Shown here in pieces: positions 1 to 8,645 of a stretch of 8,645 nucleotides of DNA. The stretch's first letter is position 1, and each line of letters starts with the position of its first letter. The notes under the pieces were generated by a model. That model searched no databases. It was not told the DNA's origin and worked only from the letters and a program-made list of their open reading frames with translations. The stretch spans positions 1-8,645 of the forward strand of contig NZ_JAEDAM010000043.1 of NCBI RefSeq assembly GCF_018420025.1, given 5' to 3'. This DNA comes from Candidatus Vampirococcus lugosii. Lineage in GTDB: Bacteria; Patescibacteriota; Gracilibacteria; Absconditabacterales; Absconditicoccaceae. A program made the position numbers and the translations under genes.

Positions 1-568
1 TACCTCCCTTCTTTGATTCAGTTATAATCTCAAAACTGAATTGAACATAATTCTTTGTAATGATATACGAGTTCAATCTCTTCCCAATATTATTATATTT
101 GTTGAAGTGTTTGTGATACTTTATTGGTAAGTCTATAATCATTTTATTACCAACACTGGCTATGTGTAACCAAGCATCGAATAATCTACTTTCTTCGGTT
201 TTATATCCACTATTCCTTGTTGGCACTAAGTCAGCAATGGTACAACTAACATACATTCTGTTACCTTTATGTACTGGTACAACCATTTTATTTGGCTTAT
301 CTTTCCATCTTTGTTTTGTTGCCAACACCATGTCAATTGCTTCTCTTGCAGCAACCTTTCGTAGTCGTGCAGATAACCATGTTTCTGGTAAATCCACCAA
401 CGGTTTTAATAATTGTGATTTTGAAGGGATGTTATTGAGGTCAGACCAAAAATGTTGAATGAAGAAATTAACTACCTTTCCATATTCGGTTAAGATAGTA
501 TTTAATTCCAACATCTTTTTCTTTGTTGTGAACTTCAAACTACATTTGGTTGACCTTATTAGTTTCAT
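1..568 (-). CDS. tnpB: TnpB/OrfB-like protein (IS607-associated, RNA-guided nuclease family); N-terminal 189 codons only, the rest lies beyond the left edge
   Basis: Not in the supplied track because there is no stop inside the window. Hand check: the minus-strand frame with codon tops at 568, 565 ... 4 has no TAA/TAG/TGA from 568 down to 2. The ATG at 568-566 overlaps the tnpA stop (TGA 567-565) as ATGA. Translation: MKLIRSTKCSLKFTTKKKMLELNTILTEYGKVVNFFIQHFWSDLNNIPSKSQLLKPLVDLPETWLSARLRKVAAREAIDMVLATKQRWKDKPNKMVVPVHKGNRMYVSCTIADLVPTRNSGYKTEESRLFDAWLHIASVGNKMIIDLPIKYHKHFNKYNNIGKRLNSYIITKNYVQFSFEIITESKKGG. This has the layout I recognise from TnpB N-terminal halves and stops just before where the RuvC-I GxDxG motif would be. 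It sits directly downstream of an IS607-type tnpA. Recognition is from memory of the family; no search was run. Confidence 0.8.
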   Translation of the reverse strand, partial: MKLIRSTKCSLKFTTKKKMLELNTILTEYGKVVNFFIQHFWSDLNNIPSKSQLLKPLVDLPETWLSARLRKVAAREAIDMVLATKQRWKDKPNKMVVPVHKGNRMYVSCTIADLVPTRNSGYKTEESRLFDAWLHIASVGNKMIIDLPIKYHKHFNKYNNIGKRLNSYIITKNYVQFSFEIITESKKGG

Positions 569-1182
569 TTCTTTTTTTGTTCTTTCAAATCTTTTTTACG
601 TTTAACGCTACGCTTACCATATAATTTACCACTAAAACTTGCCATGAGCATCATAATGTCATTAACAAATTCTTCTTCCTCTGAAATGTTTTTGTTTTCA
701 ATACATTCAATTTCTACATCATAACTATTAAAGAAGGTCTTAATCAAATTATATTGAAATCTGGTTAAACGGTCTTTGTTTTCAATTACAATTTTAATGA
801 TTTTTTTCTTAATAACCAAATCCACGAGTTTAGTGAATCCCACTCTCGTATCGGATAATCCAGAACCAACATCTTTTATTATATGTTCAACCTTATATTT
901 TTTCTTCGCACAATACTCCGATATTCTTTGAGATTGTCTATCCAAATCTCCTTTCTGTTTTTGTTCGTGAGAACTAACTCTGGCATAGGTTGCAACCGAA
1001 TGGTTAATATATTCGATTTTTTGTTCTCCCATGAATTTTAAAATATCATTTTCATTATATTTTCGATGACCACCAACAGTTCTAATTGATGAAAGTTTTC
1101 CTTCATTATCCCAAATACGAAGGGTTTTCTTGGTTACTCCAAGAAGTTCAGATACCTTTTGTATTGATAAGAGTTTACTCAT
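565..1182 (-). CDS. tnpA: IS607-family transposase TnpA (serine recombinase with N-terminal MerR-like HTH)
   Basis: N-terminal HTH (LLSIQKVSELLGVTKKTLRIWDNEGKL...GGHRKY) is followed by a serine-recombinase core (ATYARVSSHEQKQKGDLDRQ with the nucleophile Ser in YARVSS; IVIENKDRLTRF). HTH-then-catalytic order is characteristic of IS607 TnpA. The track start at 1194 is a TTG codon (plus-strand caa at 1192-1194). The ATG at 1182-1180 (MSKLLSIQ...) is the more likely start. Confidence 0.92.
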   Translation of the reverse strand: MSKLLSIQKVSELLGVTKKTLRIWDNEGKLSSIRTVGGHRKYNENDILKFMGEQKIEYINHSVATYARVSSHEQKQKGDLDRQSQRISEYCAKKKYKVEHIIKDVGSGLSDTRVGFTKLVDLVIKKKIIKIVIENKDRLTRFQYNLIKTFFNSYDVEIECIENKNISEEEEFVNDIMMLMASFSGKLYGKRSVKRKKDLKEQKKK

Positions 1183-1390
1183 TAGACTGTTCAAGAATTT
1201 TTAAAATAATTTCTTTACTGGAATCCAAAATCTTCTGAAATTCCCAAACTGAAATATCTTCATCAATATCAAGTTCAAAAGGTATTGGGTACACGTCACC
1301 ATTGTCGAGTTCGAATTCGTCTTTATCGACACGAACTACATTTAATGACTTCTTTTTAAGGTTCTCCATAATTTTATTAATCTTTTTCAT
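1175..1390 (-). CDS. Small acidic hypothetical protein (71 aa), translationally coupled to tnpA
   Basis: ATG at 1390-1388. Its stop TAA (1177-1175) overlaps the tnpA ATG (1182-1180) in the string ATGAGTAA. It has an acidic core (DKDEFELDNGDVYPIPFELDIDEDISVWE). I recognise no family. Confidence 0.5.
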   Translation of the reverse strand: MKKINKIMENLKKKSLNVVRVDKDEFELDNGDVYPIPFELDIDEDISVWEFQKILDSSKEIILKILEQSNE

Positions 1391-1473: not shown

Positions 1474-1887
1474 TTAACTGTTAATTAACCCATTATCAAG
1501 TTTCATGTATTGATAAATTGGTTTATAATCGACAAAACAAAATTCTTTTTTATCAGGCATAATATATAAATCTATATTATATTTAAGAACAAAATCATTC
1601 CACCACTTATATTTTAAGCATGCATTTGTATCACATAAAATTAAAATAACTCTTTTAAAATCACCATTTATAATTCTATTTGAAATCATTTCTAATGAAT
1701 GAACTCCTATTATAGTAATTTCGTCATCAGTTATTTTTTCTGTTTTTTTACCACAATAAATACCCATATTTGTATTTTTACCAAAAAAATTATTAAATTT
1801 TACATTAGAAACATATAAGTCACAATCTAATGCTTCTGATAAATAAGGTGCTGCAAAAAATGCACTGTGTTCTGTAAGTATTATCAT
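1474..1887 (-). CDS. Hypothetical protein (137 aa), last gene of the glycosyltransferase operon
   Basis: ATG-initiated ORF lying 3 nt downstream of the preceding gene, on the same strand, which implies co-transcription. I recognise no motif with confidence. Confidence 0.6.
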   Translation of the reverse strand: MIILTEHSAFFAAPYLSEALDCDLYVSNVKFNNFFGKNTNMGIYCGKKTEKITDDEITIIGVHSLEMISNRIINGDFKRVILILCDTNACLKYKWWNDFVLKYNIDLYIMPDKKEFCFVDYKPIYQYMKLDNGLINS

Positions 1888-1890
1888 GTT

Positions 1891-2568
1891 TTATTTAATT
1901 TTAAATCTTGATTTTTTTCTTTTTAACAATGAAAAATATTTAGGACTATCATAAATTGGATTTTTTGTAATTAAATATTTTAATTCTGGATTTAAAAAAA
2001 TAGCAAAATTAGCTGATAATTGGTCTCTATGGGAATAGTTTTTTATCTCAAACCACCAATCATCAAAGAATTTTTTAACTCTTTCATTATTTTTAAACAA
2101 AATAACACCACCTTCAATCAATCCATTATTATATTCATAACCAAATTCTTTATGTCTTTCTTTTATTTTTTCAATGATTTCTTTTTTATCATATTTATTT
2201 TCAACAATAACATTAAATTGGTCTTTAATGCTTTTTTGTCTATGTTTCATAAATACAATATCTTTATTATCCAATCTTTTCAAATATTCGTTAATATCTT
2301 TAATTATCTTTATTCTACCATCAATGTAAAGATATACACCATATTTATTTAAATGTTTTAGTACTTGTGTTTTATACTCTTTTGATAATTTAATGTGGTC
2401 AATTTCATTTTTTGAATTATTATCGATATATATTATTTTCCAAAACTTTGATTTTATATTTCTATTATCTGTAAAACAAATATAATCCCAACCATTTGAT
2501 TTTATGTTATTATCATTTAAATCACAATAATTATTCGTAATCACGGTATATACACACTTTTTATTCAT
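1891..2568 (-). CDS. DUF616/TOD1-like putative glycosyltransferase
   Basis: N-terminal CVYTVITNNYCDLND...WDYICFTD and C-terminal SHRDQLSANFA match the pattern I recall for the DUF616 family (vYTaIfGnYD ... cFtD ... RDQLSf.y). Its ATG overlaps the upstream stop as ATGA (2568-2565). Confidence 0.65.
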   Translation of the reverse strand: MNKKCVYTVITNNYCDLNDNNIKSNGWDYICFTDNRNIKSKFWKIIYIDNNSKNEIDHIKLSKEYKTQVLKHLNKYGVYLYIDGRIKIIKDINEYLKRLDNKDIVFMKHRQKSIKDQFNVIVENKYDKKEIIEKIKERHKEFGYEYNNGLIEGGVILFKNNERVKKFFDDWWFEIKNYSHRDQLSANFAIFLNPELKYLITKNPIYDSPKYFSLLKRKKSRFKIK

Positions 2569-3611
2569 AATATTTCAACAAAACCATTAACTTCTCTTGA
2601 GATGGATTTGACTTCTTTTTTCAATGATTTTTTTAATAAATGATATTTTTTTCTCATCACTGATTTCATTGATGTATTATTGTTAATTGTTAATGCATTT
2701 GAATGTTTTCTTCTTAGGAAAAGAGATTTATTTAAGTTAAAAATTTTTATATTGTTATTTGCAAATCTCAACAATAATTCACCATCTGCAGCACAAATCC
2801 AAGGCATATAACCACCAAATTCATCAATTATTTTTTTCTTATAAAATATTACGCCACCAGAATATACTTTTTTATTGGTATATACTTCTTTATTTGAAAA
2901 ATTAATGTATTTAAATTTTATTACATCGTTATTTTCAATAACCAACATTATTTCATTAACCATATTATATAACATAATATCATCACTATCAAATCGAATA
3001 ATATTTTCAAATTTTACTAAATTTAATAATGTATTTGAAGTAACATATGTCCCTTTATTACTTTCCATTAAATAAATCTGTAAATTACGATACTTATAAC
3101 GAATTTTCATTAACTTATTTAAAGTTTTTTCACACCCATCAACTCCAACCAATATTTCATAATTATTAAAACCATCGAAGTATGTTTGTTTTTCAATACT
3201 ATCCAAACATTCTTCAATATAATTTTGTGTTTGATATGCCGTAACTATTATTGAAATTGGTTGTCTATCTTCAATTGTAATTAAATTAGAAACAACATCA
3301 TTATTTATTAATTTCGATTTGTTTGATTTAACCAATTCGACATTTACGGGCTGTATTTGCCCCAAACGTCTTTTCATTTTATCATCCATGACTTCATTAC
3401 TATTTGATTTTGGTTTATATATTATTTGTTGTTCATTTATAACCTTATCTTTAGTAACGTCTTTATTAACTGGTGTACTTTTTAGTTCATTATCAATCTT
3501 GGTCTTATATGGAGATTTTGATTTAACAATCTTATTTAAAGAAGTTTTTTTTTGTGTGTATTCAACCTTCTTTTTTATTATTTTTTTTATATTTGATTGT
3601 CTTCGTTTCAT
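2565..3611 (-). CDS. GT2-family glycosyltransferase with a lysine-rich N-terminal extension of about 118 aa
   Basis: Classical GT2 (GT-A) signature from residue ~119: ISIIVTAYQTQNYIEECLDSIEKQTY...YEILVGVDGCEKT...NKGTYVTSNTLL...IRFDSDDIM (DxD = DSDD). The N-terminus, MKRRQSNIKKIIKKKVEYTQKKTSLNKIVKSKSPYKTK..., is basic and low-complexity. Confidence 0.9.
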   Translation of the reverse strand: MKRRQSNIKKIIKKKVEYTQKKTSLNKIVKSKSPYKTKIDNELKSTPVNKDVTKDKVINEQQIIYKPKSNSNEVMDDKMKRRLGQIQPVNVELVKSNKSKLINNDVVSNLITIEDRQPISIIVTAYQTQNYIEECLDSIEKQTYFDGFNNYEILVGVDGCEKTLNKLMKIRYKYRNLQIYLMESNKGTYVTSNTLLNLVKFENIIRFDSDDIMLYNMVNEIMLVIENNDVIKFKYINFSNKEVYTNKKVYSGGVIFYKKKIIDEFGGYMPWICAADGELLLRFANNNIKIFNLNKSLFLRRKHSNALTINNNTSMKSVMRKKYHLLKKSLKKEVKSISREVNGFVEIL

Positions 3612-3638
3612 AAATTAATATATAATATATTATTTTCT

Positions 3639-4451
3639 TCAAAATCCATAATATTTAGATAAAACTATTTCAGGTTTAATATTAATTATATTATATTTAT
3701 GTCCATCAGCAGAAATAGCAATATTTTCATTTTCATAATTCAAATAAGCATCACGAACTTTATTAAAATGTTGTATGTTATTACCATACCTTAATTTTGA
3801 TGCAGCATTATATATTTTTTTAAAAATATCTTTTCTAACATAACTTAGATGATGCATCTTAATAAAAGACTTATCTAAAATATTAATTAAATTATTTTGT
3901 TTTATTCCTACTTTTCTTGTTGGGTCTACCTTGACACCACAAGGAAAATTCATTACTAAGTCATATTTTACAGGAAAAAAACCGCTTACGTATAAATCAC
4001 CATCCATATATTTAGATGAATTAATTAAATATTTTGTATCTTTATAATAAGCAACTAAAGGAAGATATGTTACTATTTCTGGATTGGTTTTATGTAATTC
4101 AATTAATTTATTAAATTCTTCAGTAACATAAAATTCATCACAATCCAATGTCATATAATGTGTACATCCCTTTGCCTGTGCCAATCTTTTTCCCTGATTT
4201 CTTTTATTAATTTGATTTTGGTGAATTGATGTTGATTTATCTAATCTAAAAAATACTAAATCATTAACTAATCCTCTATTTTTAAGGGATTTAACTATAT
4301 TAATTTCCTTTTCAGTTAACTTTTCATCATAATAACTTGTTGTTTGAAATATTATTGATATGTGATCAACTACATTTCTTATTTGATTAATCGAATCTTC
4401 CAGTAATTCAACACCATCAAAAACATTATAACTAACACCAAATTTATACAT
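3639..4451 (-). CDS. Putative GT-A fold glycosyltransferase
   Basis: The N-terminal strand plus helix (FGVSYNVFDGVELLEDSINQIRNVVDHISIIFQ) and a DxD-type motif (HYMTLDCDEFY) are typical of GT-A enzymes. It is embedded between two clear GT genes with gaps of 27 and 5 nt. Confidence 0.6.
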   Translation of the reverse strand: MYKFGVSYNVFDGVELLEDSINQIRNVVDHISIIFQTTSYYDEKLTEKEINIVKSLKNRGLVNDLVFFRLDKSTSIHQNQINKRNQGKRLAQAKGCTHYMTLDCDEFYVTEEFNKLIELHKTNPEIVTYLPLVAYYKDTKYLINSSKYMDGDLYVSGFFPVKYDLVMNFPCGVKVDPTRKVGIKQNNLINILDKSFIKMHHLSYVRKDIFKKIYNAASKLRYGNNIQHFNKVRDAYLNYENENIAISADGHKYNIINIKPEIVLSKYYGF

Positions 4452-4456
4452 AATTA

Positions 4457-5942
4457 CTACAAATTTATATTATTTTCATTTATAAATACTAATAATTTTT
4501 TATAATCCTCAACAAATCTCTCATTTCCACCACTTATTTTATTTCTTGATATAGATTCGTAGTGAATGGCAACTGCGTCACTAACAGTAATATTTTTTAA
4601 ACCCAATGATTTACATCTCAAATTTAATTCAACATCTTCTAAACATTCAATATAATCTTCATTGAAGCCATCAAAAGATTTAAATAATTTCTTTTTTATT
4701 AATAAAAATCCACCCGTATTACCGATTGAATTGTAATTAACATCAGTAGAATAATTATTTATTTTTTTTATGTCTTTATGTGAGATCATTAATCTATCAT
4801 CGTTCATTGATAATGTTATCCCATTATGCTGAATAGATGAATCACCATAATGTAATCTAATACCAATAGTACCGACAGTATCTTTATTTTCATTATAAAT
4901 CTGAACACATCTGCTTAATGCATCATTCAATAAAACAATGTCGTCATTGCAAAATAATAATAATTCAGTATCGTCTGATACATGATTTTTAACCACATCA
5001 TTATTAATTTTAGCAAAATTATAATAATTATATTTTATTAATTTAATTCTACTATTCAATAAACTCTTATATGTTTCGAAAACTTCTGGTTGACTTCCGG
5101 TATCTGCAATAATAATCTCATAATTATCATATTCAACTACATTATTCCATGAATTAATGTTATTGATTATGTATTTAAGATTATTTTTTGTTGGTATTAT
5201 TACAGTTACTTTTGGTTTTGATGTTAATTCAATATCAAAATCTTCAAAATCTGGTAATACCGAAATAGGTAATTCATCTTTATATTTTTCAGCCAATTGC
5301 TTACGACTTTCTTCCCACTGCTGATTGGTTTGACCAACACTTTTATGTAATATTCTAATATCTGTTGTAACGCCAATATTACAACCGTCCAAGTAGTTAG
5401 GTAAACAAAAACTGGTGTCGTAGTGATGAAATCCTTTAAAATCTTCGTCAAAATAGTGTTCTAAATTACTTGGATTAACTGCCATGAATAATCCATCGAT
5501 TAAAACAGTTGGTGTTATCTGACCCTTTCTTTCCACAGAGTATTGGCTAGTCCATTCCTGAATTCCATCTGTATGATCGACAATACCCACCATTTTAGTT
5601 CTGTCTGTCCACCACACACCGTTTTCCGGCATGTAAGTGCTACCCGCTACACCAATAATATCGTAATCGGTGAAATTGAATTTATGTAGTAAAATCTTGC
5701 CCCAATTTTTTGTTCTGAATATAATATCTGGATGTACAAATAATATAATAACATTATCCCCCTTATATTTATCAAGTGCTTTATTATAAATCTCAGTTAA
5801 TGAAAATTGATTATAGTTTTCATAACAAACAATATCATAGTTTTTAATACCGATGGTTTGTTTAATATGTTCAATAAATTTATTATTCTCAATATCACCT
5901 AAATGTGATGAAAATATTGTAATTATTTTATTTTTTTTTCAT
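4457..5942 (-). CDS. Two-domain glycosyltransferase: N-terminal Glyco_tranf_2_5-like GT-A domain plus C-terminal GT2 domain. As assembled, the ATG is out of frame by one base in an A9 tract
   Basis: C-terminal domain: KVTVIIPTKNNLKYI...YEIIIADTGSQPE...LLLFCNDDIVL (GT2). N-terminal domain: IDGLFMAVNPSNLEHYFDEDFKGFHHYDTSFCL...IRILHKSVG, matching the pattern I recall for Glyco_tranf_2_5. The track starts at ATG 5632, but I verified that the same frame is open up to 5938. That stretch encodes KKNKIITIFSSHLGD...GDNVIILFVHPDIIF...DIIGVAGSTY, the missing first half of the N-terminal GT-A domain. This frame contains no ATG/GTG/TTG. ATG 5942-5940 joins it if the A9 run (5931-5939) is read as A8, giving 494 aa. 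Confidence 0.8.
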
Positions 5943-6183
5943 AATTAATCCACTTATCATATTTTCTACTTAATCCAAATTTACTACCAGAATAGATAAA
6001 ATTCATAAATTTTATTGCATCCTTCTGTTTAGATATTGTTATTTGCGAATATCTACCTTGTTTAGTTATATATCTATAACATTTATAATCAATATCAATT
6101 AAATTAAAAAAAGACCAATCATAGTCGTAAGTTCCACTAAATCTAACCCTAATATAATTTCTACCATCACATGAGATTGACAT
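5923..6183 (-). CDS. LAGLIDADG homing endonuclease, C-terminal fragment
   Basis: In this frame the five codons just upstream of its ATG read DADGN, so the frame carries the rest of the motif (FFRGFF|DADGNMSISCDG...). The C-terminal GLSRKYDKW resembles the conserved L.RK tail of this family. Confidence 0.8.
   Translation of the reverse strand: MSISCDGRNYIRVRFSGTYDYDWSFFNLIDIDYKCYRYITKQGRYSQITISKQKDAIKFMNFIYSGSKFGLSRKYDKWINYEKKIK
5931..5939. repeat. T9 (sense-strand A9) homopolymer immediately after ATG 5942-5940
   Basis: Counted directly in tttttttttc at 5931-5940. The sense strand reads ATG AAA AAA AAA TAA as assembled. Confidence 0.95.
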
Positions 6184-6196
6184 ATTACCATCTGCA

Positions 6197-6916
6197 TCAA
6201 AAAAACCCTCTAAAAAAATATGAATGATAGATTTTATCTATATATTCTAATAAAATTTGAGGATTAATGTATGATTTTAGGTCGAATTTATATTTTATTA
6301 GTTCGTTAACTAATAAAATATTATGTGTTGATACACATAATTGATTATTTACTCTTTTGTTGTTAAAAAATTTTTTAATTGGTTTACTTATATTCCAATC
6401 ACCTGTTTTTCTAAAAACATCAATTAATTCAATCATATCACTTTCAATCATATTTACAACAATACGTGAAAGATTCACATTTATATTACCATCTCCCCAA
6501 ATTAGCCCCAATATATAAACTATTTCAGGTGTATTAAATTTTAAAAAGGTATTATAATTAACTTTATTTGAACGTAATTTAAATCCTCTCCTATTATTTT
6601 TTAATTTATGTTGAGTATCTGAATATTTAATATTTAATGAATTTGCTTTTTTAATAATATCAGATATTTCTCGATTTAATTCTTTTGCAACTAACTCTGA
6701 ACCATATGTTGAATAATTGGTTCTTAAAAAATCAATTTCATTAAGAGACCATTTATTACTTTGACCTAAAAATTTTCTATTAATCTTTAATTCCTTTACT
6801 TTAGAATAAATAGATTCTTTGGTTCTATCTAAATTAATAGAACAATACTCTCTACCATACAATGGATATTTTTCAATTAAGAAATTAATATCATCTTTAG
6901 TCCAAGTTTTTTTCAT
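6197..6916 (-). CDS. LAGLIDADG homing endonuclease, N-terminal fragment (two Myb/SANT-like HTH repeats plus the first LAGLIDADG motif)
   Basis: First motif YILGLIWGDGNI is at 6479-6517. There is a tandem repeat W-x-x-[DN]-[DE]-I-[ND]-F-L-x3-Y-x2-YG-x-E ... L-[DN]-R ... (residues ~5-46 and ~56-97). The fragment ends ...YHSYFFRGFF then TGA (6199-6197), half-way through the second motif. Confidence 0.85.
   Translation of the reverse strand: MKKTWTKDDINFLIEKYPLYGREYCSINLDRTKESIYSKVKELKINRKFLGQSNKWSLNEIDFLRTNYSTYGSELVAKELNREISDIIKKANSLNIKYSDTQHKLKNNRRGFKLRSNKVNYNTFLKFNTPEIVYILGLIWGDGNINVNLSRIVVNMIESDMIELIDVFRKTGDWNISKPIKKFFNNKRVNNQLCVSTHNILLVNELIKYKFDLKSYINPQILLEYIDKIYHSYFFRGFF
6199..6205. repeat. 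A7 (sense-strand T7) homopolymer at the homing-endonuclease frameshift point
   Basis: Counted directly: plus strand gcatc-aaaaaaa-ccctc. The sense strand reads AGA GGG TTT TTT TGA. Confidence 0.95.
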
Positions 6917-7787
6917 ATAATGCTTTTTTTATTGTTTCATATTCTTTGGCTTTTTCCAATTCACATCTGTCACCATAACCAATTTCAATCATTCTTTTAA
7001 AAAACGGTTCAAAATCTTTAGCATATTTAACTAATTCATCTAATATTGAACTATTATAATCTGGTGTTGAAGATGCAATGTTTTCAACTAATGATAACAT
7101 TGACGGTACAGATGAATTTATATATCTTAAAATTTCTCTCGCTCCTTTATTTATTATATATCGTGGTACATCATTTTTTTTAGCCCATTGAACAATTTGA
7201 TTCGGATAAACACCTACAAGTTTAAACATAATATCCCTATAATGTTTTATTATATTTCCTTGGTCTTTAGTAAAACCATAATTTTTCATGGCGATTGCTT
7301 TACTATTATTTCGTTGAACTTGGTGTTTTGTATTTTCCTGAACAGTATTTGGTGTTGTTGTTACTAAAAATGAATATCCGTATCGTAATAATTCTTCAAT
7401 TCTATCATTACACCAAATAGAAAAATCTGCAGATAACCATCTTGCAATTTCCAATGCTATGCCTTTGTGAACCCAAGTACCTTGTTGTTTATTTAAACCA
7501 CCTCTAACAACATTAACTGATTCTGGAAACATTTTCGCTAAGTTACTGAAATTCAACGACATCGGTATGTCGATGTCGTTGATACTCAATGACTTAGAAT
7601 TTCTTGTACAATATTTATATGTTATTTCTCTTCTGGTTGGGTCATCAAGAAAATGCCCGATGTTCTTACCAAACGGTTTAACCATATCAGTAACATTAAT
7701 CATTATGTTATTAATGTTATTTAAAAATGATACATCATATTTAACACCATTTTGAGAATATTTATATATTACAATATTATTTTTCAT
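6897..7787 (-). CDS. KilA-N domain protein with an uncharacterised C-terminal half
   Basis: YDVSFLNNINNIMINVTDMVKPFGKNIGHFL...VRGGLNKQQGTWVHKGIALEIARWLSADFSIWCNDRIEELL matches the KilA-N core (G-T-W-V-H ... A-x-W-L-S-x-x-F). The last 20 nt overlap the homing-endonuclease start. Confidence 0.85.
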   Translation of the reverse strand: MKNNIVIYKYSQNGVKYDVSFLNNINNIMINVTDMVKPFGKNIGHFLDDPTRREITYKYCTRNSKSLSINDIDIPMSLNFSNLAKMFPESVNVVRGGLNKQQGTWVHKGIALEIARWLSADFSIWCNDRIEELLRYGYSFLVTTTPNTVQENTKHQVQRNNSKAIAMKNYGFTKDQGNIIKHYRDIMFKLVGVYPNQIVQWAKKNDVPRYIINKGAREILRYINSSVPSMLSLVENIASSTPDYNSSILDELVKYAKDFEPFFKRMIEIGYGDRCELEKAKEYETIKKALYEKNLD

Positions 7788-7853: not shown

Positions 7854-8168
7854 TTACTGATTAATAATTGTTTCCATTATTGTCTCATAATCTTGTCTAA
7901 CTTTTGATAATGGAAATGGTATTCTAATTAAATCATTATCAACAATATCAAATTCACTAACATATTTAGAATTTGCTAATAAAATTAAAAAATCATAAAA
8001 TGGATTTCCATAATATTTTTGGCTTAATTTATCCAATCTACTAAATTCAGAATTCCATCTCTCATATTTATCAGTTGGATTAATGGGTAATTTAATAAAT
8101 GGCATCATGTTAGGTAAACCATTTTCTTGTCTTAATAAACTATATTTATCATAATCTTGTTTTGGCAT
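7854..8168 (-). CDS. LysM-like / phage tail protein X-like small protein
   Basis: SRLDKLSQKYYGNPFYDFLILLANSKYVSEFDIVDNDLIRIPFP resembles the LysM / Phage_tail_X pattern (D-x-[IL]-[AS]-x-x-YYG ... [IL]-x-x-AN ... L-x-IP). The assignment is by eye only. Confidence 0.5.
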   Translation of the reverse strand: MPKQDYDKYSLLRQENGLPNMMPFIKLPINPTDKYERWNSEFSRLDKLSQKYYGNPFYDFLILLANSKYVSEFDIVDNDLIRIPFPLSKVRQDYETIMETIINQ

Positions 8169-8214: not shown

Positions 8215-8624
8215 TTAATTATCATCATTATCATTATTATTATTAGATTCATTATCACCATCATTAACTCCATATTGTTTAGATTCAACAAACGATGGTG
8301 TTCTATATGTACCTTGATTAACATATGTTGAATTAGCATAATAATTAAAAGATAACGCATTTTGTAATGCATTAATTGGACCTCTTAATGATTGACCACC
8401 AATTATTTTTATTTGTAAACTAACATTAGCAATCATTGGTTGCATACCAAAACCTTCGGGATTCATATCCCAAGGTGAATCATCGTAATCAATAGTAAGA
8501 TTTTCAATAATTATTTTTGTATGAAAAAAATCACCAATTCTTAAAACACAAATTGGTTGACGACCAAAAACTGAATTTTTTGATCTAACAATACCATTTT
8601 CATCAACTTCTGGTTTTACATTCA
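8215..8624 (-). CDS. Partial (5'-truncated) protein, possibly a tail-tube/baseplate-type virion protein, with an Asn/Asp-rich tail
   Basis: The frame is open to the contig end. The 'start' in the track is a TTG created at the adapter junction, so the true N-terminus is missing. ...DYDDSPWDMNPEGFGMQPMIANVSLQIKIIGGQSL... recalls the C-terminal strands of tube-fold baseplate proteins, but my recollection is weak. Its neighbour is a LysM/tail-X-like gene. Confidence 0.35.
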
Positions 8625-8645
8625 AGATCGGAAGAGCAACACGTC
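8625..8645. other. Illumina TruSeq adapter remnant (non-biological sequence)
   Basis: AGATCGGAAGAGCAACACGTC versus adapter AGATCGGAAGAGCACACGTC...: 13-nt perfect prefix, then one extra A. It is 12/21 G+C in a far more AT-rich context, at the extreme contig end. Confidence 0.9.

Follow-up and report, generated by a model that had tools for sequence, protein, structure and literature searches.

Some viruses encode their own protein glycosylation machinery, as illustrated by the multidomain glycosyltransferase (GT) plus methyltransferase of the A064R type in PBCV-1 and by the fibril clusters of mimiviruses, by which virion proteins are glycosylated in the cytoplasm. With respect to bacteriophages, GT-rich variable islands in structural gene regions have already been described (PMC7029224), and so has virion glycosylation in mycobacteriophages, with glycans on capsids and tail tubes (Freeman et al. 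2023, to the extent summarised in PMC12619734). Here we consider an 8,645-bp stretch of DNA, hereafter the window, which is the whole of contig C7 (NZ_JAEDAM010000043.1) in the 1.26-Mb bin of 102 contigs that represents Candidatus Vampirococcus lugosii, and in particular the island of five genes at positions 1474-5942, all of them, like every credible gene of C7, on the minus strand. As judged from sequence comparison, this island is one partly decayed allele of a lineage-wide hypervariable phage locus whose stem is conserved while its tail is exchanged, and not the unusual, self-contained set of five transferase domains for which an earlier note on the same DNA had taken it. What is new is this lineage together with its anchoring Glyco_tranf_2_5 gene, two transferase families without Pfam models (a 270-aa GT-A family and a mini GT-B family of ~300 aa), and the recasting of a supposed 'ORFan' as a cut-off GT-B gene.

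The stem of the locus begins in the conserved left flank, where the last 142 aa of a structural protein of ~1080 aa (8215-8643) precede a 104-aa baseplate-module protein (7854-8168; weak match to phrog_7145, baseplate wedge, 4e-4). The 104-aa protein has 59 relatives at viral loci, on IMG/VR contigs of up to 357 kb, while GT1, the two-domain glycosyltransferase that opens the island (open frame 4457-5938), has 23 relatives with 42-70% identity on viral contigs of 22-210 kb, six GT1 relatives being 69-70% identical across residues 2-488. The 104-aa gene was compared in 54 loci, 39 of which include at least 3 kb of downstream sequence, and in all 39 the next gene is a GT1 homologue, in most cases after a gap of 56-78 nt. 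About two thirds of the GT1 homologues of the lineage consist of the Glyco_tranf_2_5 domain alone and the rest have both domains. Beyond GT1, the conserved right-flank gene may follow after as little as 32 nt, without any additional gene in between, or after as much as 9 kb. In close relatives, the portion of the GT1 C-terminus that could be aligned and the 270-aa gene behind it are 82-86% identical to the window, the next gene is 54% identical, and what comes thereafter is non-homologous. Even at 82-84% identity in the 270-aa gene, relatives differ in the genes downstream of it. The island alleles of relatives hold methyltransferases, UDP-GlcNAc 2-epimerase, PfkB kinase, cupin, NAD-epimerase and rhamnosyltransferase-type genes, and homologues of three other genes of the window's island (referred to below as GT3-like, DUF616-like and GT-B(300)) recur in other phage islands that adjoin Phage_base_V genes and that also carry methyltransferases, rhamnosyltransferase-type genes and NAD-epimerase.

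The 58-kb relative L091 may serve as an example of the gene order, which runs from PhoH through a T4_baseplate/baseplate-hub protein and proteins of 809, 1083 and 103 aa to GT1, continues with the 270-aa GT, two GT2 genes, two unknowns, Methyltransf_21 and one further unknown, and closes the island with UDP-GlcNAc 2-epimerase, PfkB kinase and cupin before conserved genes resume. The hub protein is ~32% identical to annotated baseplate hub subunits of Flavobacterium, Microcystis and other myophages, and with isolates no sequence relationship was found beyond this ~32% identity. No near-identical phage genome was found in GenBank, and tblastn with the two structural ORFs of the window gave no match. 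Since CheckV assigns a completeness of 24-70% to related records of 73-210 kb, the genomes are estimated at ~300 kb, and on such sequence grounds C7 is regarded as a fragment of an uncultured AT-rich jumbo myophage. The earlier note had treated the DNA as viral rather than chromosomal, and this view holds, given the myovirus baseplate flanks and the relatives on viral contigs of 70-357 kb. A giant eukaryotic virus, hinted at by an IS607-like unit, a KilA-N gene and a G+C content of ~25%, was considered and rejected on account of the same baseplate flanks and of relatives that are tailed phages.

GT1 itself is a two-domain enzyme, as had been proposed. PF13712 matches residues 20-219 with 95.4 bits (cut-off 27; 5e-27) and PF00535 matches residues 245-387 with 51.3 bits (cut-off 23.3; 1.7e-13), the GT2 domain extending over residues 245-461. 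Residues that are invariant in six homologues are kept in GT1, namely H69 and D71 in the first domain and D279, N331, D333, E434, D435 and E437 in the second. Among solved structures, the relative that matches best is the chondroitin polymerase K4CP, whose residues 242-434 were matched by a profile of six GT1 homologues with E = 9.6e-13 (1e-12 when rounded) in an alignment that spans the two-domain junction. Because GT1 thus resembles two-domain polymerases such as K4CP, a missing Wzy does not rule out a polymer, and the earlier conclusion that the island lacks polymerisation genes does not follow from it.

The explanation that we favour, tentatively and at somewhat less than an even chance, is that this lineage-wide hypervariable locus serves the glycosylation of virion proteins. 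A virion-protein acceptor is preferred because GT1 is a core gene in a fixed structural context and because mycobacteriophages provide a precedent, as summarised in PMC12619734. According to this explanation, the Glyco_tranf_2_5 domain of GT1 would be the core 'priming' transferase directly behind the baseplate-module genes, a role that we infer because this first domain alone is universal, and behind it would come soluble transferases and sugar-tailoring enzymes that are exchanged as cassettes. These enzymes would act in the cytoplasm during late gene expression, with host nucleotide sugars or, in relatives, phage-made ones as donors, and would assemble an oligo- or polysaccharide particular to each strain on an acceptor encoded by the phage, likeliest a baseplate or tail virion protein. 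In the copy present in the window, full-length GT1 would either depend on slippage or be lost.

The genes that follow GT1 are tightly packed, and their coordinates agree with the earlier description of five back-to-back genes with gaps of 5, 27, -4 and 3 nt. The first of them (3639-4451) encodes the 270-aa protein, which has 50 relatives, none with a Pfam domain, and whose own PF00535 score of 15.2 bits lies below the cut-off. Its AlphaFold2 (AF2) model (pLDDT 96) has a GT-A fold, for which Foldseek against the PDB returned SpsA, SunS, TarS and TarP (probability 1.0, E ~1e-6, TM 0.38-0.52) and against BFVD a 'Fringe-like' Myoviridae protein (TM 0.89) and phage GT17-type proteins, while the motif D103-x-D105-E106 is invariant in 39 sequences. 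With the structure prediction that had been called for now run, this protein can confidently be modelled as a GT-A fold glycosyltransferase, in line with its earlier assignment as a GT-A/DxD protein.

The following gene, GT3 (2565-3611), encodes a 348-aa GT2-family protein with matches to PF00535 (39.8 bits, 5.6e-10) and PF13641 (6e-8), and its PDB matches are the Leptospira GT 6p61 and, at 5e-7, heparosan synthase B. The catalytic domain lies at residues ~119-330 and is preceded by a lysine-rich N-terminal extension of 118 aa, which corresponds to the GT2 with a basic extension of the earlier note. Such basic leaders are shorter in GT3 relatives. The GT3 leader, encoded at 3258-3611, is kept in a close relative (the compared stretches being L120:1805-2107 and L121:1241-2146), and in another relative, L120, a GT3-like leader is fused to an unrelated, different catalytic body. 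This suggests that the leader is not AT-rich filler but a module for docking or targeting that can move between proteins. A further variation on GT3 is found in L092:951-2582, where a 543-aa protein carries two GT3-like GT2 domains in tandem, with 48-52% identity to GT3 of the window in each case. Its gene comes immediately behind a Phage_base_V gene, and the island to which it belongs also holds two Rhamno_transf genes and three methyltransferases.

The 225-aa protein (1891-2568) is a putative glycosyltransferase of the DUF616/TOD1_MUCI70 type. It matches phrog_26101 'glycosyltransferase' at 4.7e-20 and has 161 homologues, with PF04765 in most of the 120 that were listed. The 225-aa sequence itself gave no match to PF04765, even at E <= 10, and the family profile found nothing among PDB sequences. 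When the protein was aligned with 27 homologues of 28-67% identity, 24 of these 28 family members matched PF04765 (best 9e-25), and by this transitive homology the DUF616-like label of the earlier note appears to be right, so that the protein is probably a divergent member of the family with a putative catalytic role. The island hence contains five GT-A-type domains, two in GT1 and one each in the 270-aa protein, GT3 and the 225-aa protein.

None of the island proteins has an obvious membrane-spanning stretch, as had been noted before, the highest Kyte-Doolittle mean over 19 residues being 1.0 in the island proteins and 1.13 across the ORFs of the window. Searches of the window ORFs with Pfam and NCBIfam found no Wzx, Wzy, ABC transporter, phosphoglycosyl transferase or nucleotide-sugar gene, and no components of Wzx/Wzy- or ABC-type loci were seen in the island alleles of L091, L092 and L113. 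The reported absence of export and sugar-nucleotide genes therefore stands for the 8.6-kb window, but the lack of sugar-nucleotide genes need not be a trait of the island as such, since the alleles of relatives carry them; because, in addition, the contig ends inside the insertion sequence, their absence here is probably a contig-end effect.

That the transferases are soluble had been read as favouring a soluble acceptor, an argument which loses its force in the light of TarP, a prophage-encoded enzyme described as a wall-teichoic-acid GlcNAc-transferase (Pyle et al., bioRxiv 10.1101/2023.12.21.572611) and, together with the cellular TarS, one of the best solved matches of the 270-aa GT. Soluble transferases at the inner face of the membrane could in fact remodel the host envelope by modifying lipid-linked polymers such as teichoic acid, O-chain or capsule precursors, and such a change might, for example, exclude superinfecting phages or stop progeny from re-adsorbing to lysed cells. 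This explanation, which we consider unlikely although it retains a sizeable share of the probability, draws further on the similarity of GT1 to a capsule polymerase (K4CP) and on the best, albeit weak, NCBIfam matches of GT1 and GT3, which are exopolysaccharide (EPS) and teichuronic-acid enzymes. The hypervariable GT islands in the structural region of pelagimyophages have also been interpreted along this line, as host O-chain modification (PMC7029224). On the other hand, GT1 homologues are core genes of the lineage that always stand behind baseplate genes (39/39 loci), unlike accessory conversion genes, and no GtrA/GtrB-type partner, flippase or acyltransferase was found in the window or in the annotated alleles L011, L091, L092 and L113. 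Moreover, the lineage looks lytic, no integrase having been seen in the stretches examined in a search that was not exhaustive.

The last gene of the island, orf137 (1474-1887), had been described as a 137-aa ORFan. A word-indexed protein search retrieved only orf137 itself, and when viral contigs were searched by pattern for orf137 and for the 270-aa protein, nothing was found, but phmmer against 1.8 billion representatives found 18 relatives at E <= 1e-3, mostly of 282-340 aa, so that the ORFan label no longer applies. Alignments with orf137 are confined to residues 1-136 of these relatives (up to 54% identity). The model of a full-length relative of 306 aa, encoded by L092:6766-7683, has a pLDDT of 91 and two Rossmann domains and matches BshA, MshA, TreT and PimA with TM values of up to 0.68, while a profile of this GT-B(300) family found nothing among PDB sequences. 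According to this comparison, orf137 is the truncated N-terminal, acceptor-side Rossmann half of a compact, GT4-like GT-B enzyme of ~300 aa and is probably non-functional. The C-terminal, donor-binding half occurs neither on the contig nor anywhere else in the bin, and orf137 is therefore considered what is left of a gene, rather than a functional fifth member of the island.

The junction between orf137 and the adjoining IS607-like unit is identical in the assemblies of three sequencing runs, and on this account it is considered real. The unit (1-1390, minus strand) lies 83 nt past the truncation point, this spacer separating orf137 from a 71-aa ORF (1175-1390), which is followed by a serine-recombinase TnpA with a MerR HTH (565-1194; Resolvase 1.7e-19, MerR 3.5e-11) and by the 5' part of a putative tnpB (2-568), which is interrupted by the contig end and was identified by its position, the 189-aa fragment giving no Pfam match. 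From this adjacency it would appear that the insertion of the IS607-like unit caused the truncation of orf137.

The similarity of the GT-B family to BshA and MshA, and of the 270-aa protein to TarP, is also relevant to a second alternative, namely that the island hypermodifies phage DNA by placing mono- to trisaccharides on hydroxymethylated pyrimidines, thereby evading restriction and other nucleic-acid defences. It has been demonstrated that phage GT-A and GT-B relatives of TarP, BshA and MshA glycosylate 5-hydroxymethylcytosine (5hmC), and that their clusters adjoin structural genes and genes of the thymidylate-synthase family (Pyle et al., bioRxiv 10.1101/2023.12.21.572611), and these same PDB neighbours were found for the window proteins and their relatives. 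In the 210-kb record L113, a gene of the thymidylate-synthase family is found three positions upstream of the homologue of the 270-aa GT, two small genes separating them, and an arms race with restriction systems would likewise be compatible with diversifying selection. However, the best solved match of this L113 homologue is ThyA of Bacillus subtilis (2e-39), PHROGs calls it a thymidylate synthase, only thymidylate synthases occur among the 60 matches listed for it, and the PF00303/ThyS homologues present in four of five related records look like ThyA. A Tet/JBP dioxygenase (PF12851) was not found in the five related records, which are fragments, and control genomes gave no match either; likewise, no C5-methyltransferase, hydroxymethylase or ParB was found in the window or in the adjoining island in L091 and L092. 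The sugar O-methyltransferases and rhamnosyltransferase-type genes of the relatives are, besides, more typical of protein or polysaccharide glycans, and taken together we regard DNA as a very improbable acceptor. As an observation in its own right, the ThyA-like gene at L113:7748-8575 lies between a Phage_base_V-like gene and the 270-aa GT homologue, which is an odd place for nucleotide metabolism.

Defects accumulate at the other end of the island as well, where an insertion at 5923-7787, composed of a KilA-N gene (6897-7787; KilA-N 3.5e-15) and a LAGLIDADG homing endonuclease split over two frames (6916-6197 and 6237-5923; LAGLIDADG_1 7e-4), separates the 104-aa gene from GT1. Endonuclease-like genes recur at the junction of these two genes in L060, L038, L040, L043, L046 and L053. 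In L060:11174-13011, a homing-endonuclease-like gene apparently lies between two pieces of GT1, which may represent an intron or a split gene. The endonuclease of the window carries a +1 frameshift at a T7 run (6197-6203; GGG TTTTTTT GA on the minus strand), where T6 would restore GFFDADGN (YFFRGFFDADGNMS), an intact second motif, and its final codons share an A9 tract with the start of GT1. The ATG of GT1 (5942-5940) is followed by this A9 tract (5939-5931) and then by TAAAATAATT, and the coding frame of GT1 (5938-4457) is +1 relative to that ATG, so that A8 would restore the frame. In relatives, GT1 starts with ATG AAA AAT AAT (MKNNIVVVFSSHL), which aligns to (M)KKNKIITIFSSHL of the window. 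The next in-frame ATG of GT1 is at 5632, and its use would cost 102 N-terminal residues including H69-x-D71.

The T7 and A9 runs thus present two +1 homopolymer shifts within ~270 nt, and both could be sequencing artefacts. A contig of SRR15425352 (L115) begins within the A-run and a contig of SRR13241709 (L114) begins one base downstream, on the coding strand, of the T7 run of the endonuclease; these contig starts at both homopolymers may reflect graph branching. A9 tracts permit appreciable transcriptional or ribosomal slippage, which could restore some GT1, and a 'gating' of this first gene by its homopolymer, as envisaged in the earlier note, is a possibility.

It is against this background that a third alternative has to be weighed, namely that the island is a decaying remnant which no longer functions in this strain and whose remaining ORFs are gradually being lost, an explanation that overlaps the other three and that we consider distinctly unlikely. 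It would account for A9 in place of an in-frame A8, for an orf137 without its donor-binding half, and for the insertion of an IS607-like unit on one side and of a KilA-N gene and a frameshifted endonuclease on the other. Nevertheless, the four ORFs downstream of GT1 are intact, tightly packed and have kept their catalytic motifs, the same sequence is found in assemblies of three runs, which indicates that the strain persists, and, as mentioned above, slippage on A9 could restore GT1 and both frameshifts could be artefacts.

Virion-protein glycosylation therefore remains the reading that we prefer, although several observations weigh against it. The visible C-terminus of the neighbouring structural protein is Asn/Asp-rich and not Ser/Thr-rich. 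The independent Logan assembly of SRR13241709 again shows A9, and GT1 is thus perhaps not made. The top solved matches of the 270-aa GT, TarP and TarS, are wall-teichoic-acid enzymes, and TarP is at the same time the top PDB match of DNA-glycosylating phage GT-A enzymes (Pyle et al., bioRxiv 10.1101/2023.12.21.572611), so that the evidence from folds cannot tell the acceptors apart. The comparable pelagimyophage islands have been read, as mentioned above, in terms of the host O-chain (PMC7029224). Finally, the 63 spacers of the bin's CRISPR-like arrays gave only AT-rich chance matches of 17-20 nt to C7 and the fetched related phage loci. A more specific version of the preferred reading would see in the island a strain-specific glycan-typing locus of the baseplate or tail, with a core primer and a recombination-shuffled tail, that affects adsorption or defence and in which GT1 is switched on and off by slippage on an A9 tract that arose with the endonuclease insertion; we hold this fuller version to be doubtful.

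As regards its genomic provenance, C7 is standard-code DNA inside an Absconditabacteria bin in which TGA encodes glycine. When frames bounded only by TAA and TAG are considered, the median contig of the bin has 40 TGA per 1000 codons and C7 has 4, all of which fall within spurious antisense frames. In the ~2,900 codons of its 13 real ORFs in-frame TGA is absent, compared with 71-79 TGA in each of the off-frames, and from such a complete lack of TGA as a sense codon it would seem that the DNA evolved with the standard code. TGA serves as the stop of four of the 12 complete genes of C7, and the codon that precedes the GT1 frame is TGA, with TAA two codons further upstream. Reading C7 with code 25 was tried and dismissed, as it only adds 2, 16, 3 and 4 codons to four genes and rescues none. 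The G+C content is 25.3% in C7 and 21.4% in the bin. The right end of the contig (8625-8645) reads AGATCGGAAGAGCAACACGTC, which we take to be TruSeq/Illumina adapter read-through plus one extra A; as the contig end is such an adapter remnant, the apparent TTG start of the last gene is an artefact. Scans for promoters and terminators did no better than on shuffled sequences, and no Rfam or tRNA features were found in the window.

The only other low-TGA contigs of the bin are C18 (6,976 bp) and C72 (3,152 bp), and all three probably represent standard-code DNA that was wrongly binned into a reference genome. Neither of the two qualifies as the rest of the phage: C18 contains cellular-type genes (MutS-like and recombinase-like, as judged by eye), and C72 has no family matches and no match to the islands of relatives. 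The CRISPR-like arrays of the bin (C23:15804-16644, C30:14129-15629 and C79:535-2744) show two repeat types, one of 35 nt (GTAGACTAAAAGCTCGAAAYTACGAGCATCGAAAC) and one of 36 nt (ATCTACAAAAGTAGAAATATTATACGAATTATAAAG). The lack of a spacer match, the lack of TGA sense codons and relatives that are phages of ~300 kb argue against the bin organism as the host. The co-binning of C7 is nonetheless not meaningless, since 'code-11-compatible' phages have been predicted for Absconditabacteria (Liu et al., PMC10746230).

A first consequence is that, being located on a standard-code phage contig in a TGA=Gly Absconditabacteria bin, the genes of the island should not be counted as metabolism of the candidate phyla radiation (CPR). 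Should the product indeed decorate the particle, virion glycosylation would reach beyond actinobacteriophages into a widespread group of environmental phages with genomes of ~300 kb, and such a compact and fast-evolving locus could explain strain-level differences in host range or in the evasion of defences. The locus also constitutes a natural collection of soluble glycosyltransferases, including the two families without Pfam models.

With respect to known systems, the locus shares with PBCV-1 and mimiviruses a combination of multidomain soluble GT-A enzymes, methyltransferases and virus-encoded sugar-nucleotide enzymes, although those viruses infect eukaryotes and the relatives of the window are tailed phages. 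K4CP (PDB 2Z86/2Z87) and the Pasteurella heparosan synthase resemble GT1 in that two transferase domains are combined in one polypeptide without a membrane segment; however, identity is low, about two thirds of the lineage have the first domain only, and there is no KpsMT-type exporter. As in the DNA-hypermodification clusters of Pyle et al., GTs are arranged in series, sometimes near structural genes, and have TarP, BshA and MshA as PDB neighbours, but 5mYOX with a C5-methyltransferase, or a hydroxymethylase, was not found in the window or the relatives examined. The mycobacteriophages of the Che8/Corndog type, as summarised in PMC12619734, likewise have soluble phage GTs within or next to structural genes and no export machinery, and the assembly of their glycan presumably takes place on phage proteins in the cytoplasm. 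In contrast to them, the phage of the window belongs to a lineage of jumbo myoviruses, its gene set is far larger and more variable, and the island adjoins baseplate genes and not those of the capsid or tail tube. The host recognition cluster of pelagimyophages and cyanomyophages (Zaragoza-Solas et al. 2020, PMC7029224) is similar as a hypervariable island rich in GT and sugar-nucleotide genes in the structural region, but that cluster sits between VrlC and gp14, holds tail fibres and contains mainly GT8 enzymes, whereas the lineage of the window is anchored by a single conserved Glyco_tranf_2_5 gene behind a baseplate-module gene.

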